From a virus (taxonomy: Duplodnaviria > Heunggongvirae > Uroviricota > Caudoviricetes > Crassvirales): a stretch of 36,489 nt of DNA. The position numbers and the translations under genes are program-made. Each line of letters starts with the position of its first letter. Positions within the stretch are counted from its first letter, which is position 1. Location of the stretch: the IMG/VR virus record IMGVR_UViG_3300022894_000002, positions 1 through 36,489 of that record; one strand, written 5' to 3'. The notes under the pieces are model-generated. The model had not been told where the DNA came from. It worked only from the letters and a program-made list of their open reading frames with translations, and ran no database searches. This document shows positions 8,901-11,900 of the stretch, one piece after another.

Positions 8901-11900
8901 CTTTTTATCAAAAATTTCTATATTTTCATTACTACCATGATAAAGAATTTGTTTAACTTGGGTATTAGGAAATATATCAGTAACTATTTTTTCTAATTCT
9001 TGAGTTCTATTAATTTCTATTTGTTCTCTAGAATTAATAAGTATTAAATCAATCTTACCAGTTCCAATTGTTAACATATCAGCTAACTCTTGTAAAGTAG
9101 TATTTTCATTTAAATCAGTTATCTTAATATCTTTACCAAATATACTTCTAAACATTTGTTTTAAAGCATAAAATAATCTTTTAATAACTTCTAAAAATGG
9201 TTTACCTGTTTTAGGATTAATATTCTTTTTAGCTACTTCAGTTAAAGCTCTTACACCTATTTCTTTTAATTGTTTATTAGTATTATCATCTTCAGGATAT
9301 AATCTCTCAACAGTTTCTTCTATTTGTTTGCCTTCTTCAGTAGCTAATATATCTTTAATTAACTTATTAAATAATTTAGGATTAAACTTTTCTAATGAAT
9401 CAAATAATCCATGTGAGAATTCATGCAAAGGAGTTTCTAAAGTTAAATTACCTGTAGGTATAACTACTTTATTATTAGAATAATAAGGATCTCCAGATTC
9501 ATTAGTTAATTCATAATCAATACCTAATTTATCTTTAAGTTTATCTAATAAAGTTTGCATAACTTCTTTAGATATTTCAGTTTCTCCTTCTTCTCTATTA
9601 AATTGTAAATCTAATTGATTACTTTGTTTAGGATAAATTAATATTCTTAATCCTCCTGGAGTATTTCTTAATCTAAATGAATAATAAGGACTTTGATTTA
9701 ATGTTTTAACCCAAGTTTTAGTTTTTTCAGTATCTGGAACTATTTTAATTTTACCATCATTAGTTAAAAGATTATATTCTTTATATAAAGCTTTAGTATC
9801 TTCTCTTAATGGAATAGCTTGTACTTCTAATTTTTTATATTGAATATCTGGATTAGATTTATACTCTTCTTTAGTAAATTCTTGGGATGGGCTATATATT
9901 ACTAATTTAGTTTTAGGTCTTGATATAGCTGTGTACATCATTCTATTGATTGTTAAACCATTAGTATTATCTGGAAATGACATTATATCATCTTCCATAA
10001 CATAAGTTATTTCATAAGTTGATCCTTGAACTTTATGAGAAGTTATAGCATAATTATAACCTATATCAACTATTTTTTCTTTTAATGGATATAATTCTGT
10101 AGCAAAAGCTCTTTTTTCACTTTTAAAGTCTAATCCTCTAGATTTAATATCTTTACCTAATTCAGATAATATTTTTTTAAAGTTAGGTAAATCTTTTTGA
10201 GATAATGTTTCAATTATTTTTTTAGCTTTAATAGGATTACCTTTACTATCTACTGAATCAAATTCTACGGTTAATCTATATCCTTCATATTTATCTAATA
10301 ATTTAAAATTTTCTCTTTCAATAATTTTACCTTTAAATCCATTAGCTAATACAATTTCTTTATCAACTATATATGGTTGATTGACTCTAATTATTTCTCC
10401 TATCTGATAATCTTCTGAAGGATTGTCTAATAATTCATTTCTTATAGCATCACTAACTAATCTTGCAGTTTCATTTCTAGCTACAACAGTGATAACATGC
10501 TTGGAATTTACTCCTTCTTTTAAATCTTTAACAAATTCAGTAATTAATTCTTTATTATTTTTAATATATTTTACTCCTTGATTTGTTGATTCATCAAATT
10601 TTTCAATTCTAGTAAAAGTAGGTTTTTTAACTCCTTTTCCTTGTTCTAATAAATCAATATTATCTGCATAAATATCTGTTACTGGTAAAATAGGACTTTC
10701 TTCTTTTTGCCTCATTCTAATAGTTAATTCAGAATAATTATCAGTATTTTCTAATCTTTCAAATATAGGACTATTAATATCACCAATTGGAGGTAATTGA
10801 TGATTATCTCCCATAAATATTAATTTAGCAGTTGGTCTTTTTAATTTTAATAATAAATCTAATATTTCATTAGTAATCATAGATGATTCATCAATAATAA
10901 CTAAATCAGCACTTTCTATAGGATCTCTTTTAAAATTATTTCTAAATTCTTTTTCCTCTTCAGAATTTCTAACTCTAAAATATAATTCTCCAGAATCTTG
11001 TCTAAAATCAGGAACTAAACCTAATAAACTTGCTATAGTTTTAGTAGTTTTACCTTTCATAGATTCTTGTAAAATTCCTCTTGCTTCATCAGCTACAGTA
11101 GCTCCTACAATATTACCTTTAAATTCACTAATTGCTTTATTTACAATACTAGTTTTTCCTGTACCACCTTTACCTGCTAATAAAAATTCTTGATCACTTG
11201 AATTAAGAAAATTATTTATCTTATCAATTGCTATTTCTTGATCTTTATTAGCAAATACTCCCGGAAATAATTCATATTTGTTTGCAATTACAGGTTTAAT
11301 AACTTCTACAGGTGTTTCAGGAATTACTACATAATCTTCTTTACTATTAACATCATAATTCTTTCCATAAATCCAACCTTGTTTAGGAATACCTTTAGGA
11401 TTTTCTCTTAAAAATAAAGCTTGAAATTTATACAAATCTTCAGCCCCATTTTTTTTATTAAAATTTAAGAAAGATTGTTTAACTAATTCATTATAATAAT
11501 CATAAGGAATTAATCCTAAATAAGTAATAGGAGAATTATTTAATCCAGATTGAATAATACCAACATCCATTATATTTTTAGCTAATACAGGATCTAGTTG
11601 TCTTAATTCATTAAAACTTTCAGTTAATTGATTAGCTTTAAAAGTATCATATCTTCTTGAATATATTTTAATATTATCTTTTTCTTGTTTAGATTGGTTA
11701 ATTAAAGGATATAATTCTTCAATTAACATATTTTTACCAATTCTTATTTCATCTGGATTACTAGGATTATTCTTTATTCTTAATAACTCTTTAGCGACAG
11801 ATTCTGTTTTAAATAATTTATCTTGTAATTCTGTAATATTGTTATATCCATAATTTTGAGTTATATATTGAATTAAATCATTTTCAATTAATGTTCTTAA

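Follow-up and report, generated by a model that had tools for sequence, protein, structure and literature searches.

The stretch of DNA described here, referred to as the window, covers 36,489 nucleotides (positions 1 to 36,489) of the crAss-like virus record IMGVR_UViG_3300022894_000002. One unbroken open reading frame (ORF) of 15 kb, at 5988-20996 on the minus strand, encodes a protein of 5002 amino acids (aa), P0001. This protein carries a superfamily 1B (SF1B) helicase of the Dda/RecD type, with intact catalytic residues, and the one polypeptide also holds a crAss-type virion RNA polymerase (RNAP). An earlier note, made from the sequence alone, had placed such a helicase at 9895-11290, which corresponds to aa 3236-3700 of P0001. 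The helicase is found there, although the domain slightly overruns the 3' limit of that span and extends to window position 9861. There is very little doubt that the domain is a Dda-type SF1B helicase and that its fusion to the RNAP is real.

The polymerase can be recognized by its likeness to gp66 of phage phi14:2. Residues 2077-2719 and 2770-3200 of P0001 align with gp66 (PDB 6VR4, E 6.6e-46), and GGDYDIDKM of P0001 is aligned opposite GSDFDIDKM of gp66. In the RNAP motifs of 40 helicase-bearing relatives, the R, the P, and the G-D-D-D (DxDxD loop) were all invariant. With homology over both barrel regions and the DxDxD loop, P0001 is a member of the crAss-type virion RNAP family to which gp66 belongs. 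The N-terminus of P0001 (aa 40-634) is homologous to phi14:2 gp67 (E 6e-56) and its C-terminal part (aa ~4480-4921) is homologous to phi14:2 gp65 (E 2e-10). The modules follow one another as a gp67-like N-terminus, gp66-like RNAP, helicase, zincin 2, ART-like domain, and gp65-like C-terminus. Homologues of all three phi14:2 proteins are therefore present in the same order, with the DxDxD loop conserved. In phi14:2, however, these are three separate genes and there is no helicase of this family, whereas P0001 is one ORF in which a helicase, a zincin, and an ART-like domain lie between the gp66-like and gp65-like parts. The helicase, the second zincin motif, and the ART-PolyVal-like domain occupy the position of the phi14:2 gp66/gp65 gene boundary. 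The single-ORF gp67-gp66-gp65 design, in the original phi14:2 order, is common to P0001 and its near relatives. The main parts of the fusion are located in the window as follows.

5988..20996, minus strand: giant virion-RNAP polyprotein P0001 (from the ORF and its gp67-, gp66-, and gp65-like homology)
11397..14768, minus strand: RNAP core homologous to gp66, aa 2077-3200 (from the alignment to 6VR4)
13146-13160, minus strand: RNAP catalytic DYDID, aa 2613-2617 (from the 6VR4 alignment, DYDID against DFDID)
minus strand: RNAP motif RIPTQG, aa 2574-2579 (from the motif position in P0001)
9861..11273, minus strand: folded SF1B Dda-type helicase domain, aa 3242-3712 (from profiles, PDB sequences, the AlphaFold2 model, and the fold match)

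The identity of the helicase is shown by several kinds of comparison, which together go far past what chance would give. Pfam profiles AAA_30 (67.7 bits, cut-off 27) and AAA_19 (56.2 bits, cut-off 25.1) match P0001, and UvrD_C_2 is slightly below its cut-off of 27.4 with 25.7 bits. PHROG 325, 'Dda-like helicase', matches aa 3250-3720 (E 1.1e-60). There are also sequence matches to structurally solved Dda-like helicases, RecD2, and T4 Dda. An AlphaFold2 model of the helicase from 74 relatives had a predicted local distance difference test score (pLDDT) of 91.3 and a predicted template modelling score (pTM) of 0.89. When it was compared with the PDB through Foldseek, the top match was T4 Dda 3UPU (E 2e-28, TM 0.75 by target), followed by DSH9, RecD2, RecD, and Pif1. 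Residues 104-117 of the model form a hairpin, and residues 311-374 a beta-rich block. Assigned by position only, these are possibly the pin (1B) element and the 2B domain. In fold, motif set, and size of ~470 aa, the domain is like T4 Dda (3UPU), PHROG 325, DSH9 (8JX6), and the Leptospirillum Dda (9KWF). However, it is only ~20% identical to T4 Dda, which is a free early protein and not part of a 5002-aa polyprotein. Its motif Ia also lacks the A-P-T-H/x-K pattern that is usual in Dda helicases.

The superfamily 1 motifs quoted in the earlier note are all present in the order given there (aa 3275-3693), and a Q motif is present as well. Conservation was explored across 74 aligned helicase relatives, 59 of them fused and 15 stand-alone. 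Over these, the Q-motif Gln, the Walker A Gly/Lys, the Walker B Asp-Glu, the Asp/Gln of motif III, the Arg of motif IV, the Thr/Gln of motif V, and the Arg of motif VI are invariant.

11223..11249, minus strand: Q motif NKDQEIAID, aa 3250-3258 (Q3253 invariant)
11151..11174, minus strand: motif I / Walker A GKGGTGKT, aa 3275-3282 (G3275, G3278, G3280, and K3281 invariant)
11082..11105, minus strand: motif Ia variant GATVADEA, aa 3298-3305 (confined to a clade of 15 fused helicases)
11022..11039, minus strand: motif Ib TIASLL, aa 3320-3325, followed by a beta-hairpin (from the alignment and the AlphaFold2 model)
10878..10892, minus strand: motif II / Walker B DESSM, aa 3369-3373 (D3369 and E3370 invariant)
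10788..10811, minus strand: motif III GDNHQLPP, aa 3396-3403 (D3397 and Q3400 invariant)
10707..10718, minus strand: motif IV RMRQ, aa 3427-3430 (R3429 invariant)
10014..10043, minus strand: motif V TSHKVQGSTY, aa 3652-3661 (T3652 and Q3657 invariant)
9918..9935, minus strand: motif VI YTAISR, aa 3688-3693 (R3693 invariant)

Judged from its sequence, the helicase domain is intact and is probably an active DNA helicase. By family precedent, it is predicted to translocate 5'-3' on single-stranded DNA (ssDNA). Motifs Ia and Ib had been noted to deviate from their usual forms, and both deviations are real. For motif Ib, TxASLL is the norm in the helicases of this phage family. Motif Ia is clade-specific. 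It reads ATV[AS][DY]EA[KR] in a clade of 15 fused helicases and A-P/x-S/T-H-K-A-K in the rest of the family. The His-Lys of the family is swapped in this clade for acidic or aromatic residues.

Two other fused helicases, P0025 (aa 4869-5658) and P0114 (aa 3304-4116), are interrupted at the P-loop by an intein that contains Hint and LAGLIDADG homing-endonuclease domains. In both, the AAA_30 profile picks up again at position ~29-32 behind the intein. Inteins characteristically occupy conserved, functionally important sites. Since they adjoin the P-loop in these two proteins, it appears that the ATPase of the fused helicase matters.

A phylogeny against stand-alone Dda genes had been proposed in the earlier note. 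In the maximum-likelihood tree, fused and stand-alone helicases interleave and at least five switches between the two states are needed. The window helicase itself is in the clade of 15, all of them fused, which has a support of 100 and in which the helicases are 37-49% identical across members. One of the stand-alone helicases, P0163 at L009 (JGI 3300081633 contig, 1746-3029 and 12192-12812), lies in a phage region with an RVT_1 reverse transcriptase, a ParB-like protein, and a Mom-like gene.

The helicase was said to lie directly behind the RNAP core, and this is the case. Homology to gp66 ends at aa 3200 and structured helicase is present from ~aa 3242, so that the helicase starts ~40-60 aa past the end of gp66 homology. 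Only 61 aa separate the profile match of the RNAP from that of the helicase, less than in any other of the 101 C-terminal fusions examined. Seven near relatives without the helicase (P0211, P0212, P0213, P0214, P0216, P0223, and P0233) are 48-54% identical to P0001 in the RNAP region. They are collinear with it as far as aa ~3201-3220 and again from aa ~3719-3816 onwards. P0223, for example, has ~59 residues in place of ~518 of P0001. Since these relatives are collinear with P0001 on both sides of the site, the helicase and its linkers are a clean in-frame insert.

9822..11336, minus strand: helicase cassette with linkers, aa ~3221-3725 (missing from otherwise collinear helicase-less near relatives)

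The helicase and the RNAP do not share the same degrees of relatedness. Compared with P0063, P0001 is 40-43% identical in the RNAP halves and 41% identical in the C-terminus, but only 33% identical in the helicase. Compared with P0002, P0004, P0010, and P0012, it is 47-48% identical in the helicase and 26-31% identical in the RNAP. In the nearest RNAP relatives, P0208-P0210 (65-68% identical), the SF1B helicase that occupies this slot is very different. The slot directly behind the RNAP is filled by different helicase lineages in P0001, P0063, P0208-P0210, and P0219. These comparisons indicate that the helicase module has its own history, separate from that of the RNAP, and is an exchangeable, self-contained cassette. 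The clean cassette edges and the module swapping show giant injected proteins evolving by in-frame domain exchange. The sequence VVIP, which occurs before the helicase and before HEFSH, was considered as a duplicated insertion junction. It was rejected, because P0001 alone has it and its relatives do not.

The fusion is not confined to the window. A search restricted to giant proteins found 147 helicase carriers, of which 123 were examined for an RNAP core. A core with the DxDxD loop was present in 115 of them, so that at least this many giant metagenomic proteins join the two. The helicase follows the RNAP in 101 of these 115 fusions, precedes it in 4, and is apparently inside it in ~10. P0022, P0075, P0093, and P0105 carry it N-terminally, ahead of the RNAP, and in P0092, P0103, P0107, and P0112 it is clearly between the two RNAP homology blocks. 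The helicase module can thus occupy several sites in the polyproteins.

Two complete RefSeq genomes of Suoliviridae, cr118_1 and cr50_1, also combine the RNAP core and the helicase in one ORF. Like P0001, cr118_1 gp14 (4946 aa, 'exonuclease V') and cr50_1 gp059 (4774 aa, 'DNA helicase') each have an RNAP core and a single Dda-like helicase. In these human gut phages, however, the helicase forms the extreme C-terminus, a long way from the RNAP core, and shares only ~26% identity with that of P0001. Both annotation names are automatic. RecD, a subunit of RecBCD ('exonuclease V'), acts together with RecB and RecC, and it is RecB that holds the nuclease. A nuclease domain is absent from the Pfam matches of P0001, and phage RecB/RecC were not searched for. 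The label 'exonuclease V' on the relatives is an annotation carry-over.

In an IMG/VR sample of 80 Dda-like loci, an RNAP core was present in the same ORF at 8. Together with the 115 giant fusions and the different helicase lineages in one slot, this favours recurrent selection for the join. IMG/VR was also scanned from the RNAP side, where a single-protein query gave 5 loci and a closer alignment, A3, gave 41. Sixteen long IMG/VR records contain relatives of the RNAP. Thirteen of these have no helicase of this family, one has it fused, one has it as a stand-alone gene, and one has a weak partial match. The idea that every phage needs the helicase, whether fused or stand-alone, was rejected, since those 13 of 16 records and phi14:2 have none. 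The helicase is an optional accessory, dispensable for the polymerase family overall, and not its general partner.

Where the fusion is present, a second full-length helicase copy was not found in any of the eight fusion genomes checked, which were the 103-kb record of the window, cr118_1, cr50_1, and five IMG/VR records. The fused copy can thus be taken as the working copy. A contig with 34% GC and a Dda-like helicase fragment, L016 (IMGVR_UViG_3300045988_019695, 1-11992), was considered as a second copy and rejected, as its sequence is not in the genome of the window.

The earlier note had also touched on whether the fusion had been characterised. No paper describing an RNAP-SF1B helicase fusion was found, although a figure in part of the crAss-like phage literature might mark a helicase domain. 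In Yutin et al. (2021), 'SF1 helicase' is listed only as a conserved marker gene and the text is without mention of a fusion. The fusion is not rare. The earlier note itself had named a fusion already widespread and annotated across Crassvirales as the finding that would lower its novelty. It is indeed widespread, as 115 of 123 giant helicase carriers have the RNAP core, and in RefSeq it is annotated by machine for cr118_1 and cr50_1. P0001 is one more member of a common, though uncharacterised, variant of known things. What is particular to P0001 is the shortest RNAP linker among the C-terminal fusions, the single-ORF gp67-66-65 architecture, and the clade-specific motif Ia.

The role of the helicase can be suggested tentatively. 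The reading that is preferred here, with less than even confidence, is that it could serve as an accessory booster of early infection that helps the polymerase. The whole polyprotein would be packed in the particle and ejected with the DNA, as are its homologues phi14:2 gp65, gp66, and gp67, which were all annotated from virion tandem mass spectrometry. A few copies of the helicase would then reach the entering genome together with the polymerase. The helicase would load onto the incoming DNA and track along the non-template strand 5'-3'. It would move the same way as the polymerase, which reads the template 3'-5'. A single-stranded template would be exposed for the ssDNA-preferring polymerase, and bound host proteins would be pushed off the DNA. 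The geometry would be coherent, since a motor running 5'-3' along the non-template strand goes the same way as the polymerase.

The preference of gp66 for ssDNA or denatured DNA over duplex, which the earlier note had given as established, is indeed stated in a preprint (10.1101/2020.03.07.982082). According to this source, phi14:2 gp66 transcribes ssDNA and denatured DNA well and is poor, nearly inactive, on duplex in vitro. QDE-1, which is related to gp66, needs the helicase QDE-3 and RPA (10.1101/2020.03.07.982082). QDE-1 with QDE-3/RPA is thus another two-barrel, ssDNA-preferring RNAP that depends on a helicase, but these are separate proteins and the helicase family is unrelated. Because gp66 is poor on duplex and QDE-1 needs a helicase and RPA, an accessory role at the onset of infection would be the most economical. 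A link with the polymerase is also favoured over arbitrary placement because the giant carriers nearly always turn out to be RNAP proteins, the same slot is used by different helicase lineages, and inteins are found by the P-loop. The natural RNAP-Dda fusions could serve as an experimental handle on the question of how virion polymerases of the crAss type reach duplex phage DNA. The helicase cannot be the general answer to duplex access, since most relatives, complete genomes included, are without it.

A different contribution to transcription was also considered, in which the helicase would free the template of its transcript so that the template can be used again. This was judged unlikely, because a 5'-3' translocase on the template strand would meet the polymerase head-on. 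In the virion RNAP of N4, template recycling is effected by the single-stranded DNA-binding protein (SSB).

A number of observations weigh against the role of accessory booster. Among the 120 giant proteins nearest in the RNAP, 108 lack a helicase and only 12 possess one. Eight of the 13 helicase-less long records are rated 100% complete, and no helicase of this family was found in the phi14:2 genome in a search with positive controls. Such polymerases therefore function without it. The spacing and order of RNAP and helicase are variable, with gaps of 61 to ~1900 aa, N-terminal placement, and insertion between the RNAP halves. This variable position argues against fixed mechanical coupling and fits co-delivery better. 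The stand-alone relatives are in replication modules, not beside an RNAP, and they interleave with the fused ones in the tree. The ancestral role of the helicase may thus be replication or recombination. Motif Ia contacts ssDNA in solved SF1B helicases, and the altered motif Ia of the clade, with His-Lys changed to acidic residues, falls in it. Finally, the neighbouring zincin domains might cut the polyprotein and separate its parts after ejection.

The strongest alternative, itself rather unlikely, is that the helicase is a relocated helper of replication or recombination. It would do the same job as a stand-alone SF1 helicase or T4 Dda, taking forks and recombination intermediates past bound proteins, with no specific link to transcription. 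It could have been moved into a virion protein and so be present from the first moment, or it could act late from newly made polyprotein. Two metagenomic stand-alone relatives sit among genes for PolA, an SNF2-type helicase, ligase, Gp157, and deoxynucleoside monophosphate (dNMP) kinase. The prototypical crAssphage, Carjivirus communis (KP06_gp14), and crAss002 also carry this helicase family as a stand-alone gene. In contrast to the helicase of P0001, theirs are separate replication-module genes of ~460 aa. The interleaved tree with its switches and the single full-length copy in all eight fusion genomes fit such a helper. T4 Dda is a non-essential accessory helicase, and in this it parallels the patchy distribution seen here. 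However, arbitrary placement of a helper predicts many fusion partners, yet the giant carriers are, in 115 of 123 cases, RNAP proteins. Different helicase lineages also recur in the slot behind the RNAP. In addition, a helper that is made only within a late structural protein would be scarce at the start of replication.

It is doubtful, slightly more so than for the replication helper, that the helicase is an independent effector in conflict with the host. It would be an interchangeable injected module beside the zincin and ART-like domains that shields the incoming genome or interferes with the host, for example by stripping restriction or other defence complexes or nucleoid proteins from the DNA, and the RNAP would be a mere vehicle. 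In its favour, the helicase is in a variable segment with ART-PolyVal-like and zincin modules, and both the helicase and the ART-like stretch are optional cassettes. Patchy presence in close relatives and module swapping are typical of arms-race genes. As a giant multi-domain phage protein with ART-PolyVal-like and zincin modules, P0001 qualifies as a polyvalent protein. The catalytic core, however, is that of a very ordinary Dda-like helicase, common to the replication-module copies. There was no match to an anti-defence family, although none was specifically sought, and we know of no defence target for this helicase.

Injected polyvalent proteins with helicase modules are established through Iyer et al. 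(2017; PMC5512222), with the DarB-type methylase-SF2 helicase and a UvrD-like SF1 helicase as examples. These established modules lend support to a conflict effector. Like P0001, such proteins are giant mosaics that are inferred to be injected, with zincin, ART-PolyVal-like, and helicase modules as exchangeable cassettes. Their helicases differ from that of P0001, which is SF1B Dda-like, in being SF2 (DarB-type, methylase-fused) or UvrD-like. A term search of PMC5512222 gave no mention of a crAss-type RNAP with an SF1B Dda-like helicase.

A bolder proposal, which is improbable, is that RNAP and helicase are one bipolar machine in the style of RecBCD. It would transcribe the entering duplex without host factors and would perhaps be coupled to DNA uptake. 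RecBCD has 3'-5' and 5'-3' motors on complementary strands that share the same direction of travel. Unlike P0001, it consists of separate proteins, and its helicase families are unrelated. If the proposal were true, the fact that one slot has repeatedly captured different helicase lineages would reflect convergent selection for the arrangement. Obligatory or rigid coupling is disfavoured because most relatives are without the helicase, spacing and order vary, the stand-alone copies are in replication modules, and the flanking zincins might separate the parts.

It is very unlikely that the helicase is a motor for genome internalisation, pulling the entering DNA in while the polyprotein is anchored at the cell envelope. 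The precedent is a general one, enzyme-driven DNA entry in podophages; genome entry of T7 is driven by RNAP. An SF1B enzyme can track only on single-stranded DNA, entry takes place in most relatives with no helicase of this kind, and the variable place of the helicase in the polyprotein does not suggest a fixed anchor geometry. An inactive or purely structural relic, for which the motif Ia deviation of the clade could be cited, is hardly credible, since the ATP-binding and hydrolysis residues and both arginines are all invariant, the fold is predicted with high confidence, and the Ia-variant clade retains its level of identity over 15 members.

Downstream of the helicase, P0001 contains further putative domains. 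There are two HExxH motifs in the protein, of which the second follows the helicase cassette. The ART-PolyVal family (PF18760) gave 33.7 bits (cut-off 31.2) when aa 3700-4300 were scanned and a sub-threshold 28.9 bits on a longer segment.

9411..9425, minus strand: HEFSH (aa 3858) in the second zincin-like domain (which immediately follows the helicase cassette; the domain is kept in helicase-less relatives)
8610..8948, minus strand: ART-PolyVal-like domain, aa 4017-4129 (PF18760, 33.7 bits against a cut-off of 31.2)

The ART-like stretch of aa ~4001-4153 (window 8538-8996, minus strand) is a second optional in-frame cassette, as P0211, P0213, and P0223 align straight across it.

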